From positions 27,140-91,139 of the IMG/VR virus record IMGVR_UViG_3300017717_002521: 64,000 nt of DNA. One strand, written 5' to 3'. This stretch comes from a virus. Under the pieces are notes generated by a model, which did not search any database, had not been told where the DNA came from, and saw only the letters and a list, made by a program, of their open reading frames with translations. Of the stretch, positions 7,117 through 62,105 are shown one piece after another. Made by a program: the position numbers and the translations under genes. How positions within the stretch are numbered: position 1 is the stretch's first letter; each line of letters opens with the position of its first letter.

Positions 7117-7836
7117 ATGAAAAATGCTGTAGTAGTTGTTGATATTAAACAGAAAGGCATACATTCTCTTTTACAGTATAACATAAATGCACTTAAACAA
7201 TATAGTCAACGAACCAGATCTGAATTAATTATTATCAGTTCTAAAATACTTGACCAGAAGTATAATCTTCATAAACAAGCTCCATATCCGTATCTTAGGT
7301 TTGAAAAAAATCAAATTTACCGTCTTTTCAAAGAATATGATCGAATATTAAGATTGGACAGTGATACTATGATAATGCAGAACTGCCCTAATTATTTTGA
7401 TTTAGATCCTAAGAATATGTATGTCACAAGAGAAGATGTTGGAAGTAGAAAAGAACCTAGGTTAAGACAAATAAAAACTATACAATCACAACTGGGTACT
7501 GTAGAAGGCTGGAATAGTTTCTACTTTAATAGCGGTGTCATATTAGCTTCTAGCATACATAAAGAAGCATTTAATTTAGATAATGTTGACCTGTCAAAAG
7601 TAAAAGGTGGACTTCAAGAACAAACGGTTCTTAACTGGCTTACTTTTAAATTAAAATTAAGTATCGTAGATTTAGGTCCTTATTTTAATTTTATTGAATT
7701 TTTTGAAACTGAAAATTTCGGTTTAAGAAAAAACTCCAATATAATACATTATGCTGGTAAAACAAACGATAAAAAAGTAAAAGATTTAAAAAGAGATATA
7801 ACCAACTTTAACAGTAAAAATAAAGAATTAATTTAA
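7117..7836 (+). CDS. glycosyltransferase, GT8-like
   Basis: LDSD, YFNSGV, EQTVLN, IIHYAG. Confidence 0.8.
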   Translation: MKNAVVVVDIKQKGIHSLLQYNINALKQYSQRTRSELIIISSKILDQKYNLHKQAPYPYLRFEKNQIYRLFKEYDRILRLDSDTMIMQNCPNYFDLDPKNMYVTREDVGSRKEPRLRQIKTIQSQLGTVEGWNSFYFNSGVILASSIHKEAFNLDNVDLSKVKGGLQEQTVLNWLTFKLKLSIVDLGPYFNFIEFFETENFGLRKNSNIIHYAGKTNDKKVKDLKRDITNFNSKNKELI

Positions 7837-7837
7837 A

Positions 7838-8530
7838 GTGGATAAAAAATCAATTCTTATTGTTGGCGTTCATAGATCCGGTACAACCTTTTTAGGTGGC
7901 AAACTTGGGAAACAAATAGGAAAGTTTATATCGGAACCTTGGAACTCTTGGGTTCATATTGATTCCTACAAAGCTAGTACCTATCCTATCGATAGTTATA
8001 TCAGTAAATCTGATACTGTTATTAAAACTTTTCCTGATCAATTACCTATTAATTATACAGGGAGTAAGTTAGATTGGTTATTAGAGGTAGTAGAGTATAT
8101 AGGGGTAAGTAGGACTATATTAATTAGTAGAAAAAACTTCAAGGAGCATCTAACAAGTTACACAAACCTAATGTACAGAGTATATAAGCATAGACAGTTT
8201 TATAAACATACTGGAATATTCGACTCCAGCCTAAAACTACCCGTTCATTCTGAATGGAGAGAAGAAGATATTCCAGAATGGTATTTAAATCTTAAGGACG
8301 AGGAGAAAAAAAATAAGAATGACCTTACTAAAAATAGAGATTTGCTATTTAATCTTTCTACTACAATTGATAAGAAAATAACTTGGTATGAGGATTTATT
8401 TGGTGGGGATCGAGAAAAATCTCTAGAGATTATCAAGTCGTGGAATTTTAATATTAACGAAAATAAACTTAATACTGACCTAAATCCTAAGTACAAAAAA
8501 AAGAAATCTAATCGAACTGAAATAATATGA
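7838..8530 (+). CDS. sulfotransferase-like protein
   Basis: GVHRSGTT PAPS loop, EPWN, WYEDL. Confidence 0.7.
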   Translation: MDKKSILIVGVHRSGTTFLGGKLGKQIGKFISEPWNSWVHIDSYKASTYPIDSYISKSDTVIKTFPDQLPINYTGSKLDWLLEVVEYIGVSRTILISRKNFKEHLTSYTNLMYRVYKHRQFYKHTGIFDSSLKLPVHSEWREEDIPEWYLNLKDEEKKNKNDLTKNRDLLFNLSTTIDKKITWYEDLFGGDREKSLEIIKSWNFNINENKLNTDLNPKYKKKKSNRTEII

Positions 8531-8558
8531 ATCAAAATATAAAAAAAATATTTTTAGT

Positions 8559-8588
8559 TTGTAGTTTTAAATTTTATTCTTATATTAA
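8559..8588 (+). promoter_or_regulatory. class 1 promoter (TTG-N19-TATATTAA) for folE
   Basis: matches motif repeated 16 times; spacing as in Bacteroidota -33/-7 promoters. Confidence 0.75.
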
Positions 8589-8594
8589 TAATAA

Positions 8595-8624
8595 TGAGTC
8601 GTAGAACCTCAATAAAAACAAAAG
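8595..8624 (+). ncRNA. candidate preQ1-I riboswitch aptamer in the folE leader
   Basis: TGAG-TCGTAGAAC-CTCA-ATAAAAACAAAAG: short P1, U-C-G-y-A-G loop ending in C, A-rich tail with AAAAC; directly upstream of a preQ pathway gene. Confidence 0.62.
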
Positions 8625-14493: not shown

Positions 14494-16866
14494 ATGCAGT
14501 TAGAAAAAAAGTACTATACCGTCCAAGACTCAGAGACGTTAAAGTTAATGTTCCAACACATTGAAGAGTCAGATACTCTAGCAGTCGATACTGAAACGAC
14601 TGGTCTTAACCCTCGTAAGGATAAAATTATTGGATGGTCTATATCAGGAGATGAAGGTATTGGCTTTTATCTACCTACTCTAGTATGGAACTTCGAGCAA
14701 GGTACTTTAGACTTACAGACTATTGATGGTACTTCAACTGAAGTATTATCTAAAAACTTACTTAAGATGTTATTAGGTAAGAAGCTAGTATTTCACAACG
14801 CTTCGTTTGATGTTCAGTTTATAAAAAACTATTTCGGAGTTAATCTACTACCTGATGTTTGGGTCGATACTGGACTACTTGTTCATACAGTTTATGAAGA
14901 AGGAGCATTTGGATTTGGTAATCCATTTGGTTTGAAATCTATTGCTATAATGAATCAAGAAGCATTAGGTTTAGATGTTGAGAAAGCTGCTAACGAAGAA
15001 CAAGTTGAACTAAAAGAAAGTATTAAACGAAATGGTGGAAGCGTTACTAAAGAGAGTTTTGAAATATATAAAGCAGATTTGGATATCCTTTCTAAATATG
15101 CTAGTGCTGATACTGACCTCACACTTCGCATTTGTAATCTATATCTGGCTAAACTTAAGGAAGAAGGATTAGAAGATTTCTTTTTCAAAGATGAAGTTAT
15201 GCCTATCTATCGTGAGGTTACCGTTCCTATGGAAGCTCATGGTGTAGACTTAGATACTGAATTAATAGAGAAGATACATGGAGAGATTGTAGAAGATCAG
15301 AAAAAGAATAAAGAGATAGTAATGAAGTCTCTCTTAGCTATACCTGAAGTTAAAGAATGGGTAGTAGCTACGTCTATTGAAGCATACCCTTTTTCCCATA
15401 AAGGTAATTGGGCTCAGAGATTAGTACAAAGGTATTCTTTACCTTTACCTAAATCTGAAAAAACTGGTAAGTATTCTCTTACTGCAAAGTATATTAATGA
15501 ACTAGAAGAATCAAACGTCAAGCAATTCCTACTAACCGGGGACCATACCCTTATTGAAGACGTTGAAAAATATAGAATCTCTATGTCTCTTTGGAAAGAA
15601 TCTAATGATGGAGATTATATCAATATACAATCTAAAAAGCACTTGGGTGAAATAGTCTTCGGTTACATGGGAATTCAACCTAAAGTATCAGGTGCTAATA
15701 CTAAGTCCGGTAGAGATAAGTTCGATATGAAAATGGTTGAAGAGTTAGCGAAAACGTATCCCTGGGCAGAGAATCTTAGAGTCTATAATAAGTTACTTAA
15801 GATTAAATCTACTTACGTAGACAGGTTTAGAGACCGTCAGGAAGATGGTAGATATTACTTCTACTTTAAACAAAATGGTACTGTATCTGGTAGATATGGT
15901 TCTGACGCTCAACAGCTACCTAAACCTCTTGAAGAAGGAGAAGATGCTCCTGTGATTATGAAGTACGTTAATATTGTTAGACGTTTCTTGGTTGCCGGAA
16001 ATGGTAGGAAGGTTATTGATGCAGATTACGAATCGTTAGAGCCTCACTGCTTTGCTTCAGTAACAGGAGATAAAAAACTACAAGAGATCTTTAATAATGG
16101 ATGGGACTTTTATTCTACTGTTGCTATACAGACTGAAAAGCTAGAAGGAGTATCAGCAGATAAAAAAGCTGATAACTATCTAAAGAAACTTGATCCTGTT
16201 AAACGTAATAAAGCTAAGGCATACTCATTAGGTATTGCTTATGGAATGGAAGCTTATGCTCTTAAAATGTCTCTTAACGTAGATCAAAAGACTGCTGAAG
16301 GATTAGTAAAAGGTTACTTAGATGGGTTTCCTCAACTCAAGGAATGGAGAGAAAGATCAAGAGAACAAGTCAAAGCTAATGGTAGAATACAGAACTATGT
16401 AGGACGTATTCGTCACTTACCTAAAGTTCAAAGACTCTATGATAAGTTTGAAGATCGTATGATGGATTGGAGATTTAGAAAAGAGTTAGAGACTAGGATA
16501 CCTCCTAAATATATTAAGAAAGACGGTGAGATAGTTAAGACTGTATCTCCTAGGGATCAAGTAACTCAAGCATATAGAGATTACCGTAACGGACTTAATA
16601 ACTGTCTTAACTTTCAGTTACAGTCATTAGCAGCAGCGGTAGTTAACAGGGCTGCATTAAAGATAAACTTGAAAGCTAAAGAGTTAGGTATAGATGCTCT
16701 ATGTCAAGCACAAGTACATGACCAGTTGATTATAAACGTAGATGAGAAAGATGCAGAAATGTTTGCTCCTTACGTACAAGAGATAATGGAGAATACTACT
16801 AAGTTACCTGGAGTAACTTTGAAAGCACCTCCTGAGATAGCTAATAACTGGGCAGAAGGACATTAA
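14494..16866 (+). CDS. polA: family A DNA polymerase with 3'-5' exonuclease
   Basis: DTETTG, FHNASFD, YASAD; GTVSGR, DADYESLE, RNKAKAYSLGIAYG, QVHDQ. Confidence 0.95.
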   Translation: MQLEKKYYTVQDSETLKLMFQHIEESDTLAVDTETTGLNPRKDKIIGWSISGDEGIGFYLPTLVWNFEQGTLDLQTIDGTSTEVLSKNLLKMLLGKKLVFHNASFDVQFIKNYFGVNLLPDVWVDTGLLVHTVYEEGAFGFGNPFGLKSIAIMNQEALGLDVEKAANEEQVELKESIKRNGGSVTKESFEIYKADLDILSKYASADTDLTLRICNLYLAKLKEEGLEDFFFKDEVMPIYREVTVPMEAHGVDLDTELIEKIHGEIVEDQKKNKEIVMKSLLAIPEVKEWVVATSIEAYPFSHKGNWAQRLVQRYSLPLPKSEKTGKYSLTAKYINELEESNVKQFLLTGDHTLIEDVEKYRISMSLWKESNDGDYINIQSKKHLGEIVFGYMGIQPKVSGANTKSGRDKFDMKMVEELAKTYPWAENLRVYNKLLKIKSTYVDRFRDRQEDGRYYFYFKQNGTVSGRYGSDAQQLPKPLEEGEDAPVIMKYVNIVRRFLVAGNGRKVIDADYESLEPHCFASVTGDKKLQEIFNNGWDFYSTVAIQTEKLEGVSADKKADNYLKKLDPVKRNKAKAYSLGIAYGMEAYALKMSLNVDQKTAEGLVKGYLDGFPQLKEWRERSREQVKANGRIQNYVGRIRHLPKVQRLYDKFEDRMMDWRFRKELETRIPPKYIKKDGEIVKTVSPRDQVTQAYRDYRNGLNNCLNFQLQSLAAAVVNRAALKINLKAKELGIDALCQAQVHDQLIINVDEKDAEMFAPYVQEIMENTTKLPGVTLKAPPEIANNWAEGH

Positions 16867-16874: not shown

Positions 16875-17573
16875 ATGAATATAAAATTAATTTGTTGCAT
16901 AGGGCTAGATTATGACTTAAATTTAGTTCCTCATTTTAGTAAACATTATTCTCAATATAATATAGATTCGTTTCATTTTATATTAAATAAAAAAGATGAA
17001 TTTAATACTACTGATTATAAAAAGTACTTCACCAACTTAATTTCAAATGGAGTAACGTTTCATAGCTGGGTAGGAGAATTTAATACTGTAGATAAGATTA
17101 ATAAATTTAATAAAGTAATAGAAAGCTCCTCTGAATCTCATATTCTATTAGCAGATGTTGACGAATTTCAAATACATAAAGGAGGAATTTATAAGGACTA
17201 TGTATGGGGAAATTTAATTGATAGAGTACCTAATAATAACTTAACAAAAAAAGTAACTAATAGAGATTTAAATAAACAGTTTCCTTTAAAAAGTAATTTA
17301 ACTAATTGGGATAATACTATTAAACCTTGTGTATTTCCTTCTTCGGAAAGATTGCAAACATCCCATTATATTACCACCCCGTATAATAATGAAGATACTA
17401 TAGAAGTTAACCATTACCGATGGACTAACACAAGATTACAAAAATCTAAAGATAGATATCGTATTTATTCTAGACTTAATAAAGAAGGTAAACGATGGCC
17501 ATCTGGTCATAAATTTGACTCACAAGACAGTTTACATGTTATTAGTAAACTACAACCTAAGTCTATTATATGA
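16875..17573 (+). CDS. GT2-like glycosyltransferase
   Basis: LADVDEF, NHYRW. Confidence 0.6.
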   Translation: MNIKLICCIGLDYDLNLVPHFSKHYSQYNIDSFHFILNKKDEFNTTDYKKYFTNLISNGVTFHSWVGEFNTVDKINKFNKVIESSSESHILLADVDEFQIHKGGIYKDYVWGNLIDRVPNNNLTKKVTNRDLNKQFPLKSNLTNWDNTIKPCVFPSSERLQTSHYITTPYNNEDTIEVNHYRWTNTRLQKSKDRYRIYSRLNKEGKRWPSGHKFDSQDSLHVISKLQPKSII

Positions 17574-18298
17574 ATCAAATAACCTCTGTACTTACCGTAG
17601 TTGAAAGACCCGAATACTTAAATACTCAAATAGACTGTATAAAAAATCAAAGTATAAACTCAGATATATTCATAGTTTGGAGGAATAAACAGCAATATGA
17701 TCTTAAATACCCAGCTATACTATATTTTAATGAATCTAGTCATTTTAATTCATTATATGGTAGATTTTATAATTCTTTACATATTAAAACTCCTTATGTG
17801 TTTATTTGCGACGACGATTTATTACCCGGCAAAAAATATTTAGAAAGATGTATAGAATTTAGTAAATCTAAAAACGATAAAGTAGTTATATCTTCATATG
17901 GTATGAAATTTAAAGAAGGAGAAAAAAAATATAATGTTAATAAAAGAATAAATCATAATACCTTTCCAAAAGTTCCTGTTAAAGTTGATATGGGAGGTCA
18001 AGGATGGTTTATGAAAACCGAATTACTTAAACTCTTTACTTCTTACCCTTATCTTTTAGATGATTCAGGAGAAGATATACATTTTTCATTTTGTTTGTTT
18101 AAAAATAGTATAGATATTTTTGTATTGGATAAAGATATTGATAATAAAGATACATGGCAAGATACTTGCAGAGGATCAAGAGGTAATGATGAAAAAGCTC
18201 AATGGAAAAATACTACTCATAAAATAGTAAGAGATAAACTTATAGATAAGTATACGTCTTTAGGTTGGAAATTTAACATAAATAAGTCTTTTTTGTAG
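17570..18298 (+). CDS. GT2-like glycosyltransferase
   Basis: ICDDD, GEDIHFS. Confidence 0.7.
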   Translation: MNQITSVLTVVERPEYLNTQIDCIKNQSINSDIFIVWRNKQQYDLKYPAILYFNESSHFNSLYGRFYNSLHIKTPYVFICDDDLLPGKKYLERCIEFSKSKNDKVVISSYGMKFKEGEKKYNVNKRINHNTFPKVPVKVDMGGQGWFMKTELLKLFTSYPYLLDDSGEDIHFSFCLFKNSIDIFVLDKDIDNKDTWQDTCRGSRGNDEKAQWKNTTHKIVRDKLIDKYTSLGWKFNINKSFL

Positions 18299-18407: not shown

Positions 18408-18818
18408 ATGAATACATTTTTAACAGAACGTAATCCGTTCGACATTTTAGTAAGGAATTTCTTCCAAGACGCAGGAGCATACAGACCTCTTGCAGAATCC
18501 AAATTACCCCACCCAGTAGATATTTACGAAAGAGACAACGGTCTAGGACTAGACATAGCTTGTACCGGAATCTCAAAAGAAGATATTGAAATTCTTATTG
18601 AGGGTAATATAATCAGAGTTAATTACGATAAACCTAAAGAGGATGATTTAGGCGAATATATCCATAGAGGTATCGCTAAAAGATCATTTAACCTAGGTTG
18701 GAAAATTGATAGTAGATTTAATCTATCTAAAGCAACAGCCGAATTTAAAAACGGACTGTTACAAATAGTTATACCTTTTGCTAAAGGGTTAGAACCAAAA
18801 ACTTTAACAATTAGCTAA
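18408..18818 (+). CDS. small heat shock protein Hsp20
   Basis: PVDIYE, YIHRGIAKRSF, AEFKNGLLQI. Confidence 0.92.
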   Translation: MNTFLTERNPFDILVRNFFQDAGAYRPLAESKLPHPVDIYERDNGLGLDIACTGISKEDIEILIEGNIIRVNYDKPKEDDLGEYIHRGIAKRSFNLGWKIDSRFNLSKATAEFKNGLLQIVIPFAKGLEPKTLTIS

Positions 18819-18836
18819 ATAAACCAGCTCTGAGGT

Positions 18837-18866
18837 TTGCTCTTCTATTAATTTATCTTATATTAA
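18837..18866 (+). promoter_or_regulatory. class 1 promoter for groES-groEL
   Basis: TTG-N19-TATATTAA. Confidence 0.7.
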
Positions 18867-18883
18867 TTAAAAACGTTATATAA

Positions 18884-20928
<2,045 letters not shown>

Positions 20929-21208: not shown

Positions 21209-22021
21209 ATGAAGATAACTCATAGATTTAACCACTATACAGCTCATGAAGCTAATAAGACTCTTAAATGGGTACCTAACGATTTAGAAGAACTTTTTAA
21301 AGAAAGGCTAAAAAATGAACCTACAAATCCTAGTCTTAATTATTATTTAAAAAATCCTATAATTTATAAACTAAATAATTATGGATTTAGAAGTCCTGTT
21401 GATTATGTTGAAGGAATAGAAGGTAATGTATTTTTAGGGTGCAGCCATACTTTTGGTATAGGGCATCATCTGGAGAATACTTGGTCTTGGAAGCTTAATG
21501 AGTATGTTGGGGGTAATTTTATAAATTTATCAGTCGGTGGTACCGGTATCGGAACTGGGTTTCGCTTATTATATGGGATGAAGGATATAGTAAAGCCAAA
21601 AAATGTTTTTCTATTCTACCCTCATGTATATAGATATGAATATTTTGATCAGCGTTATCAAACTTGGGCTAATGTGTGTATCACTCAACTTTATAAAATA
21701 GAAACGAGAAATAAAAAATTTCTTTTAGAACAGAACAATGCTGAGATGTTTTATTATTTACATTATACTGCTATTAAAAATTTATGTTATGAATTAGACA
21801 TTCCTCTCTATAATGTTACCGAGTTTAATAAGTTCTGGGAAGATCCAGATGAAAATTCTCCTTTACCGCTTTGTGCAAGAGATGATCACCCTAATCCCAA
21901 GTTTCATGTTAATGTTTTTGAAAAATTTAAACAAATTTATGATAATAAAATAAACATTTATAAAAGACCTGAAGAATTATGTGATTTAAAATATAACAAA
22001 GGACTAAAGCCAATTTTGTAA
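21209..22021 (+). CDS. SGNH-like hypothetical (GCSHT family)
   Basis: NNYGFRS, LGCSHTFG, INL..GG, DDHP. Confidence 0.6.
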   Translation: MKITHRFNHYTAHEANKTLKWVPNDLEELFKERLKNEPTNPSLNYYLKNPIIYKLNNYGFRSPVDYVEGIEGNVFLGCSHTFGIGHHLENTWSWKLNEYVGGNFINLSVGGTGIGTGFRLLYGMKDIVKPKNVFLFYPHVYRYEYFDQRYQTWANVCITQLYKIETRNKKFLLEQNNAEMFYYLHYTAIKNLCYELDIPLYNVTEFNKFWEDPDENSPLPLCARDDHPNPKFHVNVFEKFKQIYDNKINIYKRPEELCDLKYNKGLKPIL

Positions 22022-22112: not shown

Positions 22113-22322
22113 ATGAAGAGAGCGCTAATACTAGGCTTGCTGTTATTCGGGATGAATGCACAAGCCCATATCGGTAAAAGCGATAACAAACTGGAGCTAC
22201 AAAAGAAAGCAGTTTATTTCGAGATTAAAGCTCAACTCGCGGCCGGTGTGATTACATTAGAAGAGGCACAACGCCTCTGGAAGATTAAAGTTAAACATTT
22301 AAGGAAAGAAGAGGCTATTTAA
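22113..22322 (+). CDS. small exported protein
   Basis: signal peptide ending AQA. Confidence 0.6.
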   Translation: MKRALILGLLLFGMNAQAHIGKSDNKLELQKKAVYFEIKAQLAAGVITLEEAQRLWKIKVKHLRKEEAI

Positions 22323-22336
22323 GCCTCTTTTTTTTT
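22306..22336 (+). terminator. intrinsic terminator
   Basis: AAGAGGCT-ATTTA-AGCCTCTT plus T run. Confidence 0.75.
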
Positions 22337-22358
22337 CTCATATTTATTATAAAGAGTT

Positions 22359-23426
22359 ATGGGTATTCTAGAGGACTTAAGGTGGATAGATATACCACCT
22401 AGTAATCTGTTTATTATTTCCGGTATAATTGACTTTTCTCGTCCATCAGATCATTGGTATAAAGAGTTTCAAAAGAATAAGTCTTCAATAAGAAGTAGTA
22501 AATATATAAATAATTTAAAGCAACTTATATTACAAGGTACAAAAATTATTCTAGATTGTACAATGGAGGGTTCTTTAATCAAAGATGATATAAGAGAGTA
22601 TATAGGAATACTCACCAAACACAGAGTTGACTTTAATAGTATTTTTTTAGCATTTAATAATTCATATTTATCTTCTAGTAATATTATTTCATACAGTGGA
22701 TACAATATTAAATGTGTTTACTTTCCTCATTTTTTTATTTCTACTTTATTTGAATTTCAAAAACATATTAAACCTATGTCTTCAGATAATCCTTCATATG
22801 ACTTTTTATGTCTTAATCGTAGAATGAGAATAGGAAAGTATTTACTACTTAAAGAACTTAAAGAAAGAAATTTGTTGGAAAAAACACTTTATACTTATGT
22901 AAAGACTCTTGTAGAATCTGATGTTGATGGTTCAGTTTCTAAAAATCAATTGGAAGGAGATAAAGAATATGGAGAGCATATTTCTGAAGACGATGAAAAT
23001 TTTTTATATTGGCTTAATACAGACTGGTATTCTGATACAAAAGTAGATATAGTTAACGAAACATATTATTTAGAAGATGACCAATGTCATTTAACTGAAA
23101 AGATATTCAAACCTATGATGTTAGAAAAACCTTTTGTAGTTAATGGTACTAAAGGGTATTTGAAAGAACTTAAAAGATTAGGGTTTAAAACTTTTTCTGA
23201 CGTTATCGATGAATCATATGATGATGCTAGTAATGAAATAAGATATAAATTAGTAGTAGACGCTGCAATTGAACTTGCTGGTAAATATAATACTGATAAA
23301 GTTAAACAGATATGTAAATACAATAAAAAACTTTTTTTCAATATTTCTCATAAAAAAGATATAGTAAAAAAATTATTTATTTCTCAATTAAAAACTGATG
23401 GACTACTTCAACCTAAACAGATATAA
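22359..23426 (+). CDS. glycosyltransferase-like protein (GT-B, GT10-like C-terminus)
   Basis: FLCLNRR, IVNET, LTEKIFKP, LGFKTF..IDESYD. Confidence 0.6.
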   Translation: MGILEDLRWIDIPPSNLFIISGIIDFSRPSDHWYKEFQKNKSSIRSSKYINNLKQLILQGTKIILDCTMEGSLIKDDIREYIGILTKHRVDFNSIFLAFNNSYLSSSNIISYSGYNIKCVYFPHFFISTLFEFQKHIKPMSSDNPSYDFLCLNRRMRIGKYLLLKELKERNLLEKTLYTYVKTLVESDVDGSVSKNQLEGDKEYGEHISEDDENFLYWLNTDWYSDTKVDIVNETYYLEDDQCHLTEKIFKPMMLEKPFVVNGTKGYLKELKRLGFKTFSDVIDESYDDASNEIRYKLVVDAAIELAGKYNTDKVKQICKYNKKLFFNISHKKDIVKKLFISQLKTDGLLQPKQI

Positions 23427-23461: not shown

Positions 23462-24031
23462 ATGGACGTTATAGAATATGGTGGGCTGTTAAATAAAGCA
23501 TTTTGTGATTTACTTATAGAAAAAGCTAAACCTAAAATGTTCCAAGCCGATGTAATCGGTGAAACAAAAGATAATAGAATAGCTTCTAACTGTTGGTTTG
23601 ATAATAATGAATTCCCAGAACTGCATCACCTTAAAGAATGGATTGCTGGTACAACTTCAACACCAATTGAAAATCAAGAAAACGGGACAGTTGTAAGGTA
23701 TGATGTAGGAGGTAAATATGAAGCTCATTTTGATTACTTTGATAGTAGTGTTCCTGCTCAAGCTGAAGAATTTAAAAACGGCGGCAATAGAGTGTGGTCC
23801 TTTTTAGTATATTTAAATGATGACTATGAAGGGGGTAGTACTTTTTTTCCTGAACATGATTTAAATGTACAACCTGATATGGGGAAAGGAGTATTATGGA
23901 GAAATACTTTAGACGGAGCTTTATTAGAAGAATCAATACATGCAGGTAATCCTGTAACTAAAGGAACTAAATGGATTTTTATCACTTGGATACGAGAAAG
24001 TAAATTTTATAATGAAACCGAAAATCCCTAA
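23462..24031 (+). CDS. prolyl 4-hydroxylase-like 2OG-Fe(II) oxygenase
   Basis: HFD, RVWSFLVYLND, GGSTFF, HAG.PV..G.KW. Confidence 0.9.
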   Translation: MDVIEYGGLLNKAFCDLLIEKAKPKMFQADVIGETKDNRIASNCWFDNNEFPELHHLKEWIAGTTSTPIENQENGTVVRYDVGGKYEAHFDYFDSSVPAQAEEFKNGGNRVWSFLVYLNDDYEGGSTFFPEHDLNVQPDMGKGVLWRNTLDGALLEESIHAGNPVTKGTKWIFITWIRESKFYNETENP

Positions 24032-24137
24032 ATTATCGAATGAAGTATTACGTTCCATATGGGAAGCATCTAGGCATACAGTAGAAAAAAATAAGAAGAA
24101 ATATACACGCAAAAATAAACATAAAAAAAATGAGTGA
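24012..24137 (+). CDS. small basic protein (41 aa), ArfA-like KKKYTRKNKHK motif
   Basis: translated by hand; overlaps both neighbours. Confidence 0.5.
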   Translation: MKPKIPKLSNEVLRSIWEASRHTVEKNKKKYTRKNKHKKNE

Positions 24138-24282
24138 TTCAATTAAAAAGTGGCATGAAATGCAAGAGGATAAACACTTAAGAGAGAAAGCAGAAATTAA
24201 AAAGAAAGCATATAGATTGCTAACTGAGTATGATGCTGAAACTATTCGAGTAGCTTCTAGAATTTTAAATGAAAAAGAATAA
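24130..24282 (+). CDS. small hypothetical protein (50 aa)
   Basis: MSDSIKKWHEMQE...; fills the gap. Confidence 0.55.
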   Translation: MSDSIKKWHEMQEDKHLREKAEIKKKAYRLLTEYDAETIRVASRILNEKE

Positions 24283-24940
24283 ATATTGGCCTTTATCATC
24301 TAGAGTTAATAAATCGTTTAAAACATCCGGCTCAGACGATACAGGAATAAATACATATACTTATAATGAGTTAGGGTATCGAGGGGATTCTATATCTAAA
24401 AATATAGATATCTTATCTGTAGGTTGTTCTCATACTGAAGGCATAGGAGTTAATGATAATGAGACTTGGCCGCATTATGTAGCTGAAGCATTAAACATGA
24501 CTCATATTAATATGGGCTTTACTGGTCGTTCTAATGACTATATTTCAAGAACAGTAACCTCTTATGTAAGACAGTTTAATCCTAAATATGTATTCGTTAT
24601 GTACACATACCCCAGCCGTAGAGAGTACTGGACTGACGAAGGTCCTCAACCCTATGCTAGTCAACAGTGGGGATACTTTGAAGATAATCCCGATAAGTGG
24701 GATGCTTTTACAAAATTAAGTTCTGTTGAAAGTGACAAACATAACTTTATTAAGAATCATTTGATGGTTATGATGGCTTGTGAGTTAGCTAGTACTACTC
24801 TTATATGGAATGGTTCTTTTACTGGGTATGAATATAAAGATAGTAAAAGGTTTGACGGAGAGTATAATGTAGAATACGGTAAACATGCAACTGCAGAACA
24901 AAATAAAAAATACGCTACTAATCTAGTTGGATACCTGTAA
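24269..24940 (+). CDS. SGNH-like hypothetical (GCSHT family)
   Basis: NELGYRG, VGCSHTEG, NMG..G.SND. Confidence 0.6.
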   Translation: MKKNKYWPLSSRVNKSFKTSGSDDTGINTYTYNELGYRGDSISKNIDILSVGCSHTEGIGVNDNETWPHYVAEALNMTHINMGFTGRSNDYISRTVTSYVRQFNPKYVFVMYTYPSRREYWTDEGPQPYASQQWGYFEDNPDKWDAFTKLSSVESDKHNFIKNHLMVMMACELASTTLIWNGSFTGYEYKDSKRFDGEYNVEYGKHATAEQNKKYATNLVGYL

Positions 24941-24957
24941 GATTTTTCTTATATTTA
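24927..24957 (+). promoter_or_regulatory. class 1 promoter
   Basis: TTG-N20-TATATTTA. Confidence 0.65.
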
Positions 24958-24962
24958 ATTAT

Positions 24963-25487
24963 ATGAATAAACTTCCTTACATTCCTAAAGAATCTCGTAA
25001 GTCGATAGAAAAAGAACTTAAGAAGAGGTATTTTAAAAAACCTTATGATAGGTTTATGTGGTGGAGAAGCTATACTCTTAAGAATAAACCTTTAAATAAA
25101 AAATCACCTTTCAGAGATAAAATACTAAATGGTGATTTCGATCATGGTCCTTACTTATGGGAAATAGAATTAGCTAAACATACTATCAACGAAAAATATT
25201 TAAATAGTATTACAAGTAATGGAGAACCTGATCATGGAGTCTTTACTGCTGAAACCTCAGTAGATAGAGCCAGAATAAAAAGGCTTAACGAGGATTATGA
25301 AAAAGATGAAAGAGGCAAATTAGAAGAGATAAAGAAAGGTTTTTTGTTAAATATAAAAATTAATTCTAAACAGTATGAAAAAGAAGTTACCAATACTGGA
25401 GCAAAAGATTTGATCACTTTCTACGATAGAATGTGCGATAGGTACGGTACATACTGGAAACCTTTATCTACTGTTAGTAAAACATAG
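24963..25487 (+). CDS. hypothetical protein
   Basis: ATG at 24963 downstream of the promoter preferred. Confidence 0.6.
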   Translation: MNKLPYIPKESRKSIEKELKKRYFKKPYDRFMWWRSYTLKNKPLNKKSPFRDKILNGDFDHGPYLWEIELAKHTINEKYLNSITSNGEPDHGVFTAETSVDRARIKRLNEDYEKDERGKLEEIKKGFLLNIKINSKQYEKEVTNTGAKDLITFYDRMCDRYGTYWKPLSTVSKT

Positions 25488-25527
25488 ATATTTATATATA
25501 TTAACGTTAATTAAAAACAAATTTTAA

Positions 25528-25818
25528 ATGAAGACAATTCTAATTATTGTACTGGTTTTAGCAGCGATTGCTGGAGCAGTATGGGTAGGTACGAAGTTTT
25601 TCGGACTTGCTAAAGATGACGACAAAGATGGTATTCCTGACGAGGTTGAGGATACTGTTAAAGAAGTCAAAAGAAGAGCTAAAAGAGTAAAAGAAGAGCT
25701 CGGAGATATTGCTGATGCAGCTAAAGATGTTATAGATCAAGCAGGCGATATAGGTGAAGCCGTAAAAGGTAAACCAAGAAAAGGACGTAAACCAAGAGCT
25801 AAAAAAGCTTCTAAGTAA
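25528..25818 (+). CDS. membrane-anchored protein with DxDxDG motif and basic tail
   Basis: N-terminal TM; DDDKDGIPD. Confidence 0.6.
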   Translation: MKTILIIVLVLAAIAGAVWVGTKFFGLAKDDDKDGIPDEVEDTVKEVKRRAKRVKEELGDIADAAKDVIDQAGDIGEAVKGKPRKGRKPRAKKASK

Positions 25819-26437: not shown

Positions 26438-26554
26438 GTTTCTTACTGTATTTTTTTACTTTTAATACCATATTTATTTACGAAGGTTTTATATAACTGT
26501 TTTACAATCGTCTTGTAAATGTTAACATAACGGTTGCGCAATAAATCGCAGTAT

Positions 26555-27025
26555 ATGAAACTTTTACTCTTTTTGTATAGTCTCCTATTAAGCTTAACTC
26601 TAGTAGCACAAGAAGTTAAGATAGGAAATGTAGAAAATAAGATCTTACTTGGCAACTTAGCCGGTAACAGAGATCTTGCGTTTGGAGTACAGAATGTACT
26701 TGAAGAAGTAATTCAAGACGCAGGATATGATCTTAATCCAAAGAGTTCTACTGAAATTACTGTCGATCTATTATTTTTTGACGTTAAAAAAAGTAACGTT
26801 CAACTAGCTGTATATAGTAAAAATACTGACGTATATACTATTATAGCAAGAGCTACTTTATTAAAAAAAGGTAAAAAGAAAAAACAGGTTACTGCTAAAG
26901 GCCAAGCTAAGTCTGTTTCGACTGCAACCTTAGTAGTAGATAAAGGAGGAAAATTTTCTCAAGCAAATGTTTCAACAGCAATAAAGAAATTATGTGAGCA
27001 ATTGGTCACAAAATTAAAAATATGA
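26555..27025 (+). CDS. exported protein, possibly CsgG-fold related
   Basis: signal peptide LVA|Q; alpha/beta pattern and C-terminal helix like 30163. Confidence 0.5.
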   Translation: MKLLLFLYSLLLSLTLVAQEVKIGNVENKILLGNLAGNRDLAFGVQNVLEEVIQDAGYDLNPKSSTEITVDLLFFDVKKSNVQLAVYSKNTDVYTIIARATLLKKGKKKKQVTAKGQAKSVSTATLVVDKGGKFSQANVSTAIKKLCEQLVTKLKI

Positions 27026-28752: not shown

Positions 28753-29129
28753 TGAGCTATAATTTTCAGAAATGGTATTACTTTTGGTTGTTCGTTCTAT
28801 TTTTAGCATGTGCTCGAGATGACGAATATATTACTTATAGTACTAATTACGATACAAGACTTGAGATAGCTGATCTCGAAGGATTACAATTTAAAAATAG
28901 TAACATTACTGATGGTACTAAATTTAATTTTAAGACTCAAACAGCTGGAGACTATACTTTAGAAATAAGAGATCATTTTAAAACTCTCATATCTAAAAGT
29001 ATTATTACCGCACAAGTAGGAGATAACGTATTAAATTTTTATACGAAGGCGCTTCAAGACGGAGATTATTATATATCGATTCACAGTAAATTCAAAAAAG
29101 TCCAAGAGACTAAAATGACAATCCAATGA
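28752..29129 (+). CDS. putative lipoprotein with Ig-like C-terminal domain
   Basis: FLAC lipobox; LQDGDYYISI. Confidence 0.55.
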   Translation: MSYNFQKWYYFWLFVLFLACARDDEYITYSTNYDTRLEIADLEGLQFKNSNITDGTKFNFKTQTAGDYTLEIRDHFKTLISKSIITAQVGDNVLNFYTKALQDGDYYISIHSKFKKVQETKMTIQ

Positions 29130-29605
29130 AAAAACTTATATTCGCAGTATTAAGTTTTATTTTAGTTGCGTGTTCTAATCAATCTATTGAAGACGGATTA
29201 GATGATTTAAATGCTAGACTAGTAGAACTAGAGCAAGAAATAGTCGCTTTTGATGCACAATCTTTACTAAGTGACATTAGTGAAATTGCTGATCAAGTAG
29301 CAGCTTTTGAAGCTCAAAATGAAGAAAACCAAGCTACTATTGCTGAAGTAATGGCTACGTTAGATTCGTTAAACTTACAGTTAGCTGAGATAAATGAAGC
29401 AATCGAGGCAGCTGGTACCATGGAGCAAATTCAAGCTATCAAAGTAAAATTGCAGGAAGTAAACGAAGGAATCGCTTTACTAGTATTTGCTTCAGATTAT
29501 GATCTAGATGGGATTATAAATGGGTTAGATCAATGCCCTAATACTCCTATAACTGAAATAAGTCTGATAGATACTAACGGATGTGGTCCATCTGAAATAG
29601 ACTAA
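29126..29605 (+). CDS. coiled-coil lipoprotein with thrombospondin type-3-like repeat
   Basis: LVAC lipobox; DYDLDGI...DQCPNTP...NGC. Confidence 0.65.
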   Translation: MKKLIFAVLSFILVACSNQSIEDGLDDLNARLVELEQEIVAFDAQSLLSDISEIADQVAAFEAQNEENQATIAEVMATLDSLNLQLAEINEAIEAAGTMEQIQAIKVKLQEVNEGIALLVFASDYDLDGIINGLDQCPNTPITEISLIDTNGCGPSEID

Positions 29606-29607
29606 TT

Positions 29608-29865
29608 ATGAATGACATTAAAAAAGCAATTATTGGAGTTATCACTCTAGCTATCACAACAGGAGGGGGATTATTGATTAAGAGCCTTTTTGAAGGAGAT
29701 AAAGAAGAAGTAGTGAAAGAAGTAACTACCCCAGCTCCAACTAATGTCATTATTAATATACCTCAGCAAGAAGTAAAAAAAGATACCATAGTAAAGAAGG
29801 TATATGTTAAACCTAAACCCAAACTATCTGAAACTGAAAAAAGAAAGAAGAAGATAGATTGGTAG
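29608..29865 (+). CDS. single-TM hypothetical protein
   Basis: N-terminal TM. Confidence 0.55.
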   Translation: MNDIKKAIIGVITLAITTGGGLLIKSLFEGDKEEVVKEVTTPAPTNVIINIPQQEVKKDTIVKKVYVKPKPKLSETEKRKKKIDW

Positions 29866-29877
29866 TTATATCGCAGT

Positions 29878-29913
29878 AAAAAAAAGAGACCGAAGGCGGC
29901 AACCCTCGATCTC
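29878..29913 (-). terminator. minus-strand intrinsic terminator
   Basis: reverse strand GAGATCGAGGG-TTGCCG-CCTTCGGTCTC-T8; fully paired only on this strand (two G-U). Confidence 0.7.
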
Positions 29914-29954
29914 CGGTAAATAAAATGAATTTAGTAACTTTTAAAACAAAAACA

Positions 29955-30879: not shown

Positions 30880-30886
30880 GTAGGTT

Positions 30887-55095: not shown

Positions 55096-55836
55096 ATGAT
55101 TATAAATCACAAGTATAAGTTTATTTTTTTTAAGAGTAAAAAAGTTGGCGGAACTAGTATGGAACTAGCTCTTGGTAAATTTACTACTGATAGTGATATA
55201 GTCACAAGAATAAGAAGTGAGGAAGAAGAAGCATTGAGAGATAATTTAGGTATTAATAATAAAAATGCTGGTAGTCTAGTAAATCATAGTACAGCTGCAG
55301 ATTTATTAAAGTTTCTAGAAGCACCTCAATACAGAGATAAGGATATATTTAATTCTTATTTTAAATTTACTATTATTAGAGAACCAGTTGACCTTTTTAT
55401 TAGTAAATACTTTTTTCAAAAGAACTCAGGCCCTAAAAATCCACCCCCAGACCATATTAATGAATGGGTTAAATTATTAAAGGAACGAAGATTATACGGT
55501 AAGAAAAATGTAAGTGATGAAAACTGGAATATATATTCTTTAGATAATAAACTCATTACTGACGATTATATTACATACAGTAAGGATTCAGGACCAGGAT
55601 CTAAAATGTATGAAGACTGTTCAAGAATATCAGAAAAACTAAACTTTCCTGAAAATTTAGCAGATTTATTTTACAATACCAGAGCAAAAACTCAATATAG
55701 AGAAAAGGTCAAAGTAACTCTTTCTAAAGAATCTATAGATTTTATAGAAGAAGTTTCTAAACCTGAAAGAGAAGTTACTGGAATGAAAATAGCTCGCAAA
55801 GAATATGAGGGTACAATAACAAGGCCGTTTATATAA
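55096..55836 (+). CDS. sulfotransferase family 2-like
   Basis: KFIFF...KVGGTS, IREPVD.FIS. Confidence 0.75.
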   Translation: MIINHKYKFIFFKSKKVGGTSMELALGKFTTDSDIVTRIRSEEEEALRDNLGINNKNAGSLVNHSTAADLLKFLEAPQYRDKDIFNSYFKFTIIREPVDLFISKYFFQKNSGPKNPPPDHINEWVKLLKERRLYGKKNVSDENWNIYSLDNKLITDDYITYSKDSGPGSKMYEDCSRISEKLNFPENLADLFYNTRAKTQYREKVKVTLSKESIDFIEEVSKPEREVTGMKIARKEYEGTITRPFI

Positions 55837-55837: not shown

Positions 55838-56539
55838 ATGAAAATAGATAGAGCTTTAATTATAAGAAGACTCCAAGTTCCTATTTCAATTGAGTATGCT
55901 GAAATGTGTGCTGCTTCATGCGAAGAGAATAATCTTCCTTATGAGTTTATAGATGCAGTTGAATTTCTATCTTGTGATGAAGCATTTAAATCTGTGGGTA
56001 CATTTAGACAGAAGAAGTATGTAAATAAGGATGGGCATTGTAATGTGCATGCATCTCATATAAAATGCTGGAAACGTATTATAGAGTTAGATAAAGCTTG
56101 CATTATATTAGAACATGATGCTATTGTAAAAGGTGATGTAACAGATGTAGATATATTAGATAATACCATTACTACTTTTGGACATAGAGTAACAGAGTTA
56201 GATGAATATACTCCTCCTTCTCCTGCTATCGGGTTAATCGAAATAGAACGTTCATTCGGAGTACATGCTTGTGGACTTACTCCTACTACAGCTAATACTT
56301 TATGGCAAGCTACAAAAGATAAAGGTATATTTACAGGAGTAGATAACCTATTAATGATTCATAAATCTTCAGGCTTACCTCTCTTTGTATGTGAACCTCC
56401 TCAAGTTGTATGTTGGACTAGAGTCTCTACTATAGAGATTGAAAAAGGTAACTTTAAATCCAACACTACTAACTTTAATGAATCTTTTACAGACGGTTGG
56501 TTAAAAGGTTCTAATAAAAACGTAAAACAAATTATTTAG
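55838..56539 (+). CDS. GT25-like glycosyltransferase
   Basis: FIDAV, SH..CW, IILEHDA. Confidence 0.7.
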   Translation: MKIDRALIIRRLQVPISIEYAEMCAASCEENNLPYEFIDAVEFLSCDEAFKSVGTFRQKKYVNKDGHCNVHASHIKCWKRIIELDKACIILEHDAIVKGDVTDVDILDNTITTFGHRVTELDEYTPPSPAIGLIEIERSFGVHACGLTPTTANTLWQATKDKGIFTGVDNLLMIHKSSGLPLFVCEPPQVVCWTRVSTIEIEKGNFKSNTTNFNESFTDGWLKGSNKNVKQII

Positions 56540-59606: not shown

Positions 59607-59638
59607 TTATTCTGAGCTATTTATAATAAAATTATATA

Positions 59639-61468
59639 ATGAAAGGAACATTATTTTCAGCAGATTTTGTATTCGATTCGTCGAATAATGCTAGGTTATT
59701 AGAAATTAATACTGATACTTCTTTAACTACCCCCGGTAATGAAAATTTAGATTTTACAGATTTTGGCACTGTTTTATCAGATAGCTCTCTGGATACTCTT
59801 CATATTATCTTTAAGCCTTTTCACCAACTAATAGTAGATAAATTAGTAGATTTTGTAAATAATAATGTTTCAAACATTACTACAATAACATTTCAAGAAG
59901 AAGAAACATGTTCGCTTTATGTAGGTGCAGTTGAAGATGCTAGTAATAAGTTTATACTTAGAATGGCTTACGATGAAGCAGCTATATTAGATTCTGAATA
60001 CGCTAAATCTGAAATAAAATTATATAGTTTATTCAATACTAATAGTGATTTAGATTCTTTACCTCCCTCTTATCATTCTTCTTCTGTTCACGGTATAATA
60101 GATACTATTTCTCAATCGTTTAATGACCCTAATATTCCTGACTTTGTTAAAAAAACTGAAAACGCATCTGGAGCTACTTTATTATCTATAGGATTCTTAA
60201 AAGCAGGTCTTCCGGAAACAGGATCAGATTATAGACTTAATACTTTAATAGAAGAACAAAAAAAAGAAGATGTATTAATATCTAATTTTTTACCCAACCT
60301 ATCAGGTTCTTATACTACTTCAGTAAGATCTATGCAAATAGTATATGGTAATGATTTAGATTTATGTTTTGTTGGTGAACATCAACAAGTTTCTTTATTT
60401 GATATTCCTTCTTCTATTACTACTGGGAGTCTTGACGGTTCTGACAAAGTCTCTCACGAGGTCCATCAAAAACACAGACACGAATTTACAACGAATCATC
60501 CTAAGTATAAGGGAGGTTTAATTAAAACTACTAATATTCTCAGCTCATCAGGTGATGCGTTTAATATTCAAACACTTAACTCTGGATCTGATTACTTTTA
60601 CCAATCTTACTTTGTATCTGGTTCTCCGGATACTGATGCTGTAACTGAACTTAACGATTGGTTTTACTCAGGATCTAACTTTCCTTCAGGTTCCTATTTG
60701 ACTTCTTCTAATGTAATTTTAGTAGAAGAAAACCTTAATCCTGATTTAGACATATACAAATTAGAATTAGAATCTGGTGATACTTTCTTATTAGGAAGTG
60801 TATCTTTATTACCGGTATTAGATACTGGCTCTAATGTAATTACTTGGAAATCTACTGAAAAAGTTTTACCCGGTAATAAAGTATTTGACGAGAATAATAC
60901 TTCCTATTCAGTAGTTTCTAATACTTATCAAATTTCTGATACTAATGGGGAATATGATCTTTATCAACCTAATATGGAAGTAATAGATACTTATATACTT
61001 AAAGGCTCTAGTATGAATTTATTAGTTCATAACCCCTTTGGAGCGGGTAGAGGAGGATGCTTTATTAAAGGTACTGAAATTACTTTACCTAACGGTGATA
61101 ATAAAGCTATAGAAGATATAACTCAAGGTGAGGAAATATTAACTCACAATCATGATTCCGGATTAGACGAAGTAGGTGTAGTAGGTTTTATAGAAACTCT
61201 AGAAGCAAATAAAATAATTAAGATAACTACGGATGGTAAACATACAAAGGAAATTACCTGCACCCTTGAACATCCTTTTTATGCTAATGGTAAGTATATC
61301 CAAGCAGAATATTTAGAAGTTATGGATCTATTGCATACAAATTATGGTGAGGATGTATTTATAAGCAAAGTAGAAATTTTAGACGAAACTCATACAGTCT
61401 ATAATTTAAGAGACGTATCTGATAACCATAACTTTTATGCTAACAACATATTAGTTCATAATAAATAA
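59639..61468 (+). CDS. ATP-grasp-like N-terminal domain fused to two tandem Hint domains
   Basis: ADF...LLEINTD; Hint1 GLIKTTNI...LLVHN; linker PFGAGRGG; Hint2 CFIKGT...TLEHPF...VYNL...NFYANNILVHNK. Confidence 0.75.
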   Translation: MKGTLFSADFVFDSSNNARLLEINTDTSLTTPGNENLDFTDFGTVLSDSSLDTLHIIFKPFHQLIVDKLVDFVNNNVSNITTITFQEEETCSLYVGAVEDASNKFILRMAYDEAAILDSEYAKSEIKLYSLFNTNSDLDSLPPSYHSSSVHGIIDTISQSFNDPNIPDFVKKTENASGATLLSIGFLKAGLPETGSDYRLNTLIEEQKKEDVLISNFLPNLSGSYTTSVRSMQIVYGNDLDLCFVGEHQQVSLFDIPSSITTGSLDGSDKVSHEVHQKHRHEFTTNHPKYKGGLIKTTNILSSSGDAFNIQTLNSGSDYFYQSYFVSGSPDTDAVTELNDWFYSGSNFPSGSYLTSSNVILVEENLNPDLDIYKLELESGDTFLLGSVSLLPVLDTGSNVITWKSTEKVLPGNKVFDENNTSYSVVSNTYQISDTNGEYDLYQPNMEVIDTYILKGSSMNLLVHNPFGAGRGGCFIKGTEITLPNGDNKAIEDITQGEEILTHNHDSGLDEVGVVGFIETLEANKIIKITTDGKHTKEITCTLEHPFYANGKYIQAEYLEVMDLLHTNYGEDVFISKVEILDETHTVYNLRDVSDNHNFYANNILVHNK

Positions 61469-61471
61469 ACT

Positions 61472-61603
61472 ATGGCAATTTATAGAGAAAAAACTTCATT
61501 TGAAGTACAAAATAAACCAGTTCATCCTATTACTGCTGACCAGAAGACTAAAGTTCGTGCAATTGTTACAAATTTTATTACATACTTGAAAGCTTCTATT
61601 TAA
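61472..61603 (+). CDS. small hypothetical protein (43 aa)
   Basis: MAIYREK...LKASI; fills the gap between the Hint gene and the oxygenase. Confidence 0.55.
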   Translation: MAIYREKTSFEVQNKPVHPITADQKTKVRAIVTNFITYLKASI

Positions 61604-61607
61604 TTAA

Positions 61608-62105
61608 ATGTTAAAGGTTATAGATAATTTTCTTTCAGAAGAAATTTGTAATAAAATTATAAAAGATAATTTATCCAATTTTAAACCTATTCCTGAACTA
61701 CCTCATGTTAGAAGATGTACTTCTAAGTTTATAGAGGCCCCTAAAATTAGAGAAGAACTTATATTTATAGTTAACGAAATAAGAAAAGATCTTACTGTAG
61801 ATTCTACTTTCGAATTTATTCAATACAGTAAAGATGACCATTTTGAATGGCATAACGACGTTAGATTAAATAATCCTAAAACCGAAACTATTTCAGCTAT
61901 TATATTATTAAACAATAATTTTAAGGGGGGTGATTTGCTATATAGAGAAAATTTAAAGATAACTAAATCTAACATTAATGTTGGTTCTTTAATTATTTTT
62001 CCTTCTAAATTGCAACACAAAGTTAATAAAATTACAGAAGGTTTTAGATATAGTTTATGCTGCTGGTTCTATAAAGACAATACTAAATTTAAATCAATAA
62101 TATAG
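61608..62105 (+). CDS. 2OG-Fe(II) oxygenase
   Basis: WHND, FKGGDL, FPS..QHKV, G.RYSL. Confidence 0.9.
   Translation: MLKVIDNFLSEEICNKIIKDNLSNFKPIPELPHVRRCTSKFIEAPKIREELIFIVNEIRKDLTVDSTFEFIQYSKDDHFEWHNDVRLNNPKTETISAIILLNNNFKGGDLLYRENLKITKSNINVGSLIIFPSKLQHKVNKITEGFRYSLCCWFYKDNTKFKSII

Follow-up and report, generated by a model that had tools for sequence, protein, structure and literature searches.

Several known systems use a short terminal peptide to gather unrelated enzymes. Encapsulin cargo-loading peptides and microcompartment encapsulation peptides are portable and act at the protein level, their carriers being unrelated enzymes whose genes neighbour that of the recruiting structure. The peroxisomal targeting signal PTS1 (-SKL-COOH, for which the TPR domain of Pex5 is the reader) and the class I PDZ ligands (x-[S/T]-x-hydrophobic-COOH) are strictly C-terminal stretches of 3–5 residues with a free carboxylate, found on many unrelated enzymes. 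Here we describe a C-terminal tail, or tag, on modification enzymes encoded in a 64,000-nucleotide window of viral DNA, which is the last 64 kb (G000:C1:27140-91139) of the 91-kb, ~55% complete IMG/VR contig IMGVR_UViG_3300017717_002521 (hereafter G000). We also describe its association with a gene, called the hub below, whose product combines a predicted ATP-grasp domain with two Hint domains that bracket a short peptide.

The consensus of the tail is K/N-K-[S/T/K/N]-[L/I]-[I/L]-COOH, and in G000 it takes the forms KSII, KQII, KELI, KSFL, KPIL and RPFI. Its logic is similar to that of encapsulin peptides, PTS1, PDZ ligands and the leader/recognition element (RRE) pairs of ribosomally synthesised and post-translationally modified peptides (RiPPs), yet none of these fits as a family. 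The encapsulin and microcompartment peptides are longer than K-[ST]-L-I-COOH and differ from it in sequence, and the phage tail is confined to the very terminus; the gene that co-occurs with it encodes an ATP-grasp/twin-Hint protein, and no gene for a shell shows such a link. A basic or hydroxyl residue upstream of an aliphatic end is common to the phage tail, PTS1 and class I PDZ ligands, but the present system belongs to a prokaryotic virus. Identity with PTS1 was rejected, as the pattern [SAC]-[KRH]-[LM] is not matched by K-[STKN]-[LI]-[IL] and SKL-like ends are rare. Set against the PDZ ligand pattern, the last residue is I or L in ~90% of tails, but S or T is at position -2 in only ~30–50% (39% in the sulfotransferase-like family, 50% in the 2-oxoglutarate (2OG) oxygenases). 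Neither of the PDZ domains PF13180 and PF17820 was detected in G000 or in four relatives, and all 14 control genomes contained the two; we thus discarded a PDZ reader encoded by these phages, a PDZ protein of the host being a possible one.

In RiPP pathways, one recognition peptide likewise serves many tailoring enzymes that act on one short peptide, and radical S-adenosylmethionine (SAM)/SPASM enzymes, 2OG oxygenases and ATP-grasp proteins are typical RiPP classes; the polarity proposed for the phage system is reversed, with the common peptide on the enzymes. The BUBL proteins of Tetrahymena, built as bacterial intein-like domain (BIL) - ubiquitin-like - BIL, also have two Hint domains around a unit, the C-terminus of which can form an activated thioester independently of ATP (PMC8616854), and the bracketed peptide of G000 ends in RGG, as ubiquitin does. 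The hub differs from BUBL in that its bracketed segment has 0–17 residues and no ubiquitin fold, its first Hint domain has no Cys1, an ATP-grasp domain is fused to it, and it is viral and linked to tagged enzymes. Lastly, the part of the jumbo-phage survey by Iyer et al. 2021 (PMC7824862) considered here deals with a cyanophage gene cluster, with a predicted secondary metabolite as product, in which carbamoyltransferases and 2OG oxygenases occur together with enzymes that modify sugars or amino acids. It shares with our genomes the carbamoyltransferase/2OG combination, and no C-terminal tag and no protein of the ATP-grasp/Hint type is mentioned in that part of the paper. A full-text literature search found no description of the tag or of an ATP-grasp/Hint phage hub.

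A C-terminal motif kept by selection at the protein level

The original prediction, made from the sequence alone, listed nine C-termini of modification enzymes as carriers of one tag, and all nine were confirmed by translation of the open reading frames (ORFs; genes were called as the longest ORFs). On the whole contig, 12 of 124 proteins end in [KR]x[ILVFM][IL]$, as compared to 0.81 expected from internal 4-mers (p = 5e-11). Since G000 has a GC content of 32% and its proteins contain many K, I and L residues, such ends could be a product of composition, as the original prediction itself had allowed. However, in three viral contigs of 31–36% GC, which share the GT25 glycosyltransferase and proved to be unrelated phages, the same motif ends 3 of 401 proteins and shows no excess.

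In order not to test the motif on the data that had suggested it, we built a 5-residue position-specific scoring matrix (PSSM) from 82 database homologues of the sulfotransferase-like protein encoded from position 7838, excluding the protein of G000 itself and omitting the family from every count. With the false-positive rate set to 1%, 13 proteins of G000 pass, versus 1.2 expected. Seven of the nine listed termini are among those that pass, RTEII and PKQI being the two that fail; judged by the tails of their homologues, these are degenerate members of families that are tagged in relatives.

The tail also passes the check that the original prediction had set for it, conservation between orthologues, where it is kept at 25–67% identity across families. 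Homologues of the 7838 protein with 25–32% identity end in KRTLI, ERKLI or KRSMI, and among 83 full-length representatives of the family, drawn from 1.8 billion proteins, the last residue is I or L in 73, position -1 is L or I in 53 and position -3 is K in 43, which gives the consensus K-K-[ST]-[LI]-[IL]. The ~50 homologues of the GT64-like enzyme (50–67% identity) all end in K/N-[ST]-x-[ILVM] after a variable linker of 6–9 residues. Orthologues of the 2OG oxygenase encoded from 61608 (44–82% identity) end in KSVL, KSIL, KSAI, KTIL, NVI or NLI, and a hydrophobic terminal residue is found in 111 of the 112 members of its family. In several families, the terminal (I > L) and penultimate (L > I) residues are the most constrained, -2 is polar (S/T/K/N) and -3 is usually K. 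The AlphaFold (AF2) model of the 61608 oxygenase, the one family modelled, has an overall predicted local distance difference test (pLDDT) score of 90 that falls below 50 at residues 162–165, and the last four residues therefore appear as a free terminal tail.

The carriers are different folds, as had been proposed: Pfam places five of the nine in the GT8, GT64/GT2-like, Sulfotransfer_2, GT25 and 2OG-FeII_Oxy_3 families and has no match for the other four. BLASTP (1e-2) detected no paralogy among tagged proteins, including the two that end in RPFI and the three 2OG oxygenases, which removes paralogy as a source of the tail at this threshold. Like tails are spelled by differing codons, and the sequences downstream differ too, with no common DNA motif beyond the stop codons, so that a DNA-level signal at gene ends was ruled out. 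Taken together, these comparisons show that selection on the protein maintains the tail as a short linear motif at the C-terminus. We give almost no credence to the opposite view, that the ends have no function and reflect AT-rich composition, shared ancestry of a C-terminal strand or a DNA signal: it draws on the base composition of the genome, and is opposed by the enrichment over internal composition, the background level in matched contigs, the at least 22 tagged BLAST families and the persistence of the tail while linkers vary.

The lysine of the tail is disfavoured as an obligatory acceptor, since Arg takes its place in RPFI and RTLI and, in the larger tagged families, the final six residues of 8–20% of the members contain no Lys. 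Two C-termini that had been named as exceptions to the enzyme pattern, KLLL (44079) and KQVL (10904), are present as sequences and do not hold as tags, both failing the PSSM. KQVL is the helix end of a formyltransferase, whose position shifts in orthologues (LLKKFE, KLLGIHK, FLKN), and relatives hold no homologues of the KLLL protein.

Association of the tail with the hub gene

Homologues of the hub gene are present in the relatives G006, G007, G009, G026, G030 and G036, giving seven hub genomes with G000, and absent from the complete or near-complete relatives G008, G010, G042 (phage immuto), G050 and G054. At a PSSM threshold of 0.2%, 31 of 1194 proteins are tagged in the seven hub genomes as compared to 4 of 1017 in the five hub-less ones (Fisher p = 2e-5), while the three unrelated contigs hold 2 among 401; relatives with a hub are thus rich in tags and those without it are at background. 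Kinship is not a sufficient account of this pairing: G008 and G010, whose polymerases are 80–82% identical to that of G000, have neither hub nor tag, and the more distant G036 (71%) carries the two together. For the most part, the tagged families do not occur at all in hub-less genomes. In G036 the hub is flanked by five genes ending in KTLI, and in G026 and G030 by four each.

As an independent replicate, diverse viral contigs were scanned with a profile made from the hub alignment, yielding 80 hub loci whose hubs are 31–60% identical to that of G000 (59 distinct hubs and 239 distinct tagged proteins, as near-duplicates are included). In these loci 349 of 1924 neighbouring proteins are tagged, versus 3.8 expected, and they fall into at least 22 BLAST families. 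The tagged share is 44% at 0–2 kb downstream of the hub and then 33%, 26% and 17% per 2-kb bin; it is 14% immediately upstream and ~1% beyond 4 kb. These results show that the tail marks client enzymes of an accessory module whose invariant member is the ATP-grasp/Hint/peptide/Hint hub.

The same loci qualify the picture of tagged genes scattered as singles or pairs among core genes. In relatives and in the 80 loci, a block of tagged genes begins immediately after the hub, a gene with which the original prediction had not connected the tag. The scatter is partly an artefact of this lineage and of the contig, which stops 2.5 kb after the hub gene (window 61469-64000 being the remainder); since the block lies mainly 0–8 kb downstream elsewhere, its hub-proximal part has probably been cut off in G000.

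The presence of tags at background level in hub-less relatives, which presumably infect similar hosts, bears on the possibility that the tail is a degron or remodelling signal for a host AAA+ machine of the ClpX type, limiting the lifetime of the enzymes during infection. With basic residues ahead of an aliphatic end, the tail recalls RRKKAI, the MuA-type ClpX signal, and it is exposed in the AF2 model; in E. coli, a non-polar C-terminus destabilises a protein. A signal read by the host should not, however, hinge on one phage gene, and a degron would account neither for the operon-like tagged block after the hub nor for the division of enzymes described below, so that we find this explanation quite unlikely.

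The small heat-shock protein (sHSP) of the phage, or its GroES/GroEL, could also be the reader, with the tail docking as the C-terminal IxI motif of an sHSP does. The sHSP gene directly follows the tagged pair at 16875 and 17570, and it lies within 10 kb of the hub at 23 of 81 loci. It is found in all seven hub genomes, yet also in three of the five hub-less, tag-poor ones, and GroEL occurs in all five of the latter; neither therefore tracks the tag. The tail was also rejected as an sHSP IxI/V motif, given that its aliphatic residues are adjacent at -1 and 0 with a polar -2, in place of the I-x-I spacing, and we regard a chaperone reader as very unlikely.

Much as the original prediction stated, the tag is missing from core genes and from the main sugar cluster at 37–51 kb, which contains GT1, GT2 and GT7 glycosyltransferases, an FkbM methyltransferase, a nucleotidyltransferase, a RuBisCO-like protein and an epimerase. 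It is not a property of the fold, as a fourth P4H-like 2OG oxygenase (window 23462-24031; PF13640, E 1e-15) ends in ...ETENP and is untagged. The tagged set of G000 comprises GT8, GT25, GT2 and GT64-like glycosyltransferases, two to three sulfotransferase-type proteins, an SGNH-like protein, three P4H-like 2OG oxygenases, two proteins of unassigned function and a carbamoyltransferase. Near hubs, the tagged share is 82% for 2OG oxygenases, 79% for sulfotransferase-like proteins, 65% for radical SAM/SPASM enzymes and 62% for SGNH-like proteins, and further 2OG families, a GNAT and DUF6445 are tagged near hubs elsewhere. APS kinase, sulfurylase-like proteins, HAD phosphatase, DUF2061, the sHSP and most carbamoyltransferases are untagged near hubs, and sugar-nucleotide enzymes and the hub itself also belong to the untagged class. 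We infer that tagged enzymes are those that meet a macromolecular substrate, peptide or glycan, and that the untagged ones make diffusible co-substrates or cofactors.

Because several clients are GT8, GT25 or GT2 enzymes, we also considered that the tail, as a basic patch with a hydrophobic end, may be a peripheral anchor to the inner membrane, where lipid-linked glycans are built. The lipopolysaccharide glycosyltransferases WaaJ and LgtC associate with membranes via basic and hydrophobic C-terminal regions, and a DUF2061 membrane protein is recurrent near hubs. Nevertheless, two aliphatic residues beside a free carboxylate would anchor a protein poorly, a motif at the exact terminus is not needed for membrane binding, the untagged glycosyltransferases of the main cluster speak against a general need, and the link to the hub would be left unexplained; this explanation is highly improbable.

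The hub protein and a putative role for the tail

The hub belongs to a family of at least 524 homologue clusters in metagenomes, every one without a name, and a tblastn search of 50,697 GenBank phage records with it gave no match. Its AlphaFold model, based on a 51-sequence alignment, has a pLDDT of 88 and was compared with solved structures (VIA). Residues 472–609 are structurally closest to BIL2 of Tetrahymena BUBL1 (Z 21.6) and to a Clostridium (C. thermocellum) BIL (Z 21.2); in this second Hint domain C474 is invariant and H607/N608 are nearly so. Residues 293–465 also adopt a Hint fold (Z ~15 to mini-inteins), with H464/N465 invariant and no conserved Cys/Ser1 at the start of the domain in the 51 sequences, which makes C-terminal cleavage alone plausible for it. 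The N-terminal region (1–288) resembles YgiC with ADP (Z 9.4), GspS (8.8) and glutathione synthetases; Z values for this class run from 9.4 to 8.3 over 200–225 residues, those of 8.9, 8.6 and 8.5 being among the highest. All top non-Hint matches are of this YgiC/GspS/glutathione synthetase class, followed by weaker ones to LysX/ArgX, RimK and TTLLs, and Foldseek gives an E value of 5e-5 to YjfC. E22/N24 (E-x-N), D9, K59, R108, K123, K188 and R230 are invariant in the alignment, and may include the Mg-ATP ligands (E-x-N) and the phosphate-binding Lys/Arg residues of an ATP-grasp ligase. The segment between the Hint domains has 0–17 residues; it is PFGAGRGG in G000, P[FY]GAGR with a Tyr-rich stretch in one clade, and in G036 a Cys-rich peptide of 24 residues (PCWCSGYNCGWWSCYNSCWTCQAQ). 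Hubs of the G006 and G007 type have no second Hint domain. As BIL2 is reported to transfer the C-terminus of an upstream polypeptide to lysine without ATP (PMC8616854), a twin-Hint arrangement can hand on a bracketed unit.

The tail probably plugs its enzymes into a common partner. We see about an even chance that one joint reading of the sequences, models and analogies is right, in which the tail is a docking address, the hub its likely reader and the hub-borne peptide the likely substrate. A common reader would bind the free terminal peptide, which offers an alpha-carboxylate and a pair of aliphatic side chains, and would thereby gather hydroxylases, sulfotransferases, glycosyltransferases, esterase-like and radical-SAM enzymes on one macromolecular substrate. 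The most likely reader would be the hub, and specifically its predicted ATP-grasp domain, since the structural relatives of that domain (glutathione synthetase, GspS, YgiC) bind the free C-terminal carboxylate of short peptides. The most likely substrate would be the short peptide between the two Hint domains, on which the enzymes would act before it is freed by Asn cyclisation at its upstream end and thioester formation at its downstream end. Leader-peptide logic would thus be reversed, the address being on the enzymes and the receptor on the precursor. Of the docking or sorting signal originally proposed, the part that stands is an enriched, conserved and free tail on interchangeable enzymes; nothing points to the virion structure or protease that had been suggested as its target.

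Several observations weigh against this joint reading. The co-occurrence of tag and hub was counted among related genomes, which are not phylogenetically independent, and a carbamoyltransferase co-occurs as perfectly as the hub does (seven of seven hub genomes versus none of the five hub-less). In G000 itself linkage is weak, as tagged genes are mostly 4–80 kb from the hub, with 3 of 16 genes tagged within 8 kb as compared to 12 of 107 elsewhere. With Z 9.4 and an rmsd of 4.3 Å, the resemblance to ATP-grasp proteins is modest. Many hub homologues have no bracketed peptide, or one of just 2–3 residues, and it therefore cannot be the universal substrate. Finally, some hub homologues themselves have tag-like ends (HN-RKGFI; ...PKELTKHL, ...ELIKHL; e.g. 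G026 34943-36343), which would fit a reader other than the hub.

The tail could alternatively be a substrate of the hub, whose ATP-grasp domain would activate the terminal alpha-carboxylate and ligate it to an amine, such as the N-terminus freed by the first Hint domain, so that enzymes would be tethered or capped covalently. The motif is strictly C-terminal, as the hydrophobic ends of the 2OG family illustrate, and a free carboxylate is the sole feature unique to that position; moreover, the structural neighbours of the N-terminal domain are carboxylate-amine ligases that act on peptide or protein C-termini, and E22/N24 and several Lys/Arg residues are invariant. Catalytic competence is, however, deduced from conserved residues only, such ligases would be served equally well by the cis-encoded peptide, which ends in Gly-Gly, and covalent capture of more than 10 different enzymes is without precedent. 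We consider such ligation unlikely.

Generalising the docking reading, it is possible, at somewhat less than even chances, that large uncultured phages carry a 'reverse-leader' form of tailoring, in which a self-processing precursor bears the receptor or ligase for a 4–5-residue address and the enzymes are exchangeable. If true, this organisation of a biosynthetic pathway has not been described before. Were the tail an address, a simple rule (a K-[ST]-L-I end, encoded after a hub) would assign hundreds of 'hypothetical' phage proteins to one pathway, which would be a widespread phage-encoded module for peptide or glycan tailoring, and the tail would offer a portable tag of very small size with which enzymes could be brought to a scaffold; the product of the ATP-grasp/twin-Hint protein and the swapping of tailoring enzymes by phages would become concrete questions. 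Natural genomes with and without the hub are ready-made comparisons. The contribution of this window is a lineage related to a Flavobacterium phage with hub-plus and hub-minus genomes, the folds of all three hub domains, the division of tagged and untagged enzymes by role, and evidence against an sHSP reader and an acceptor role for the lysine.

Features of the window and its relatives

The features of the window are collected in Table 1. The 7838 protein is sulfotransferase-like solely through its RSGTT and R-x8-S motifs, both of which are invariant in the family. A homologue of the 16875 protein with 42% identity ends in ...KPGKLI. The 21209 family is found at 50 of 81 hub loci and is tagged in 62% of cases, and the 22359 family has a hydrophobic last residue in 13 of 14 distinct tails and is 57% tagged near hubs. 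Sequence searches of the 7838, 16875, 21209 and 22359 proteins against solved structures, with and without a profile, returned nothing useful. Homologues of the GT25 enzyme from unrelated viral contigs (50–60% identity) end in ...GWKKGKKI, ...GLKK or ...NHNAV, without the extension that carries the tag in G000.

Table 1. Tagged enzymes, hub and candidate reader in the window, with coordinates counted from its first nucleotide
Feature	C-terminus	Position	Strand	Evidence and remarks
GT8 glycosyltransferase	...NSKNKELI	7117..7836	+	Pfam PF01501, E 6e-9; PSSM 5.6, above 1% threshold
Sulfotransferase-like P-loop protein	...KKKKSNRTEII (degenerate)	7838..8530	+	No Pfam match; PSSM 2.0; family tagged
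232-aa enzyme, function unassigned, DVDEF motif	...LQPKSII	16875..17573	+	No Pfam match; PSSM 9.9
GT64/GT2-like glycosyltransferase	...NINKSFL	17570..18298	+	Pfam PF09258
Small heat-shock protein HSP20		18408..18818	+	Pfam PF00011; candidate reader, not favoured
270-aa protein, GCSHTFG (SGNH-like) motif	...GLKPIL	21209..22021	+	No Pfam match
355-aa protein	...LLQPKQI (weak)	22359..23426	+	No Pfam match; PSSM -1.3; family partly tagged
Sulfotransfer_2 enzyme	...GTITRPFI (Arg replaces Lys)	55096..55836	+	Pfam PF03567, E 2e-10; PSSM 5.9
GT25 glycosyltransferase	...GSNKNVKQII (on 6-residue extension)	55838..56539	+	Pfam PF01755
Hub, 609 aa: ATP-grasp 1-288, degenerate Hint ~293-465 (end VHN), PFGAGRGG, Hint/BIL 474-609 (Cys1...VHNK)		59639..61468	+	Pfam PT-HINT 489-608; AF2
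2OG-Fe(II) oxygenase (P4H-like)	...NTKFKSII	61608..62105	+	Pfam PF13640; second gene after hub

Five more tagged proteins are encoded upstream of the window, namely a 248-aa protein (RPFI), a GT2 (KSTI), two 2OG oxygenases (KKTI and KHLI) and a carbamoyltransferase (QKTLL). Two NodU/CmcH-type carbamoyltransferases of G000 (14820-16523 and 23892-25625) lie in this region. Between two tagged 2OG oxygenases, G000 22166-23289 holds genes for an APS kinase, a HAD phosphatase and a cytidylyltransferase/ATP-sulfurylase-like protein, which look like a PAPS supply for sulfotransferases; the APS kinase, HAD and sulfurylase-like families at this site are untagged and recur near hubs in other phages.

A 43-aa ORF (61472-61603), which could encode a small partner or a precursor, separates the hub gene from that of the tagged 2OG oxygenase. 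Its end, ...YLKASI, is tag-like by eye and has a PSSM score of ~0, and it was not counted as tagged. A scan of viral contigs with the 2OG protein as query produced no match, and searches of phage collections with window 26534-32716 (as DNA) and its 27022-28752 ORF (as protein) gave AT-rich noise or no match.

Nearly all genes of G000 are on the + strand. The closest cultured relative is Flavobacterium phage vB_FspM_immuto (G042), which is without the hub module and whose family-A DNA polymerase shares 68% identity with the one encoded by G000 (window 14494-16866); at least 80 relatives of the G000 polymerase, with 63–96% identity, are found on uncultured viral contigs that measure up to 190 kb. 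One contig, G001 (IMGVR_UViG_3300040960_001631, 120 kb), has merely 90 ORFs of at least 60 aa, far below the number in other contigs, which may reflect stop-codon recoding or very long genes. In the window, an 824-aa protein (2404-4878) ends in ...SLKYKF, a signature of beta-barrel outer-membrane proteins, and its gene is followed by a GC-rich hairpin. Genes for HSP20, GroES and GroEL follow in a row (18408-20832), directly after the DNA polymerase and the tagged pair, and this trio is kept across most relatives.

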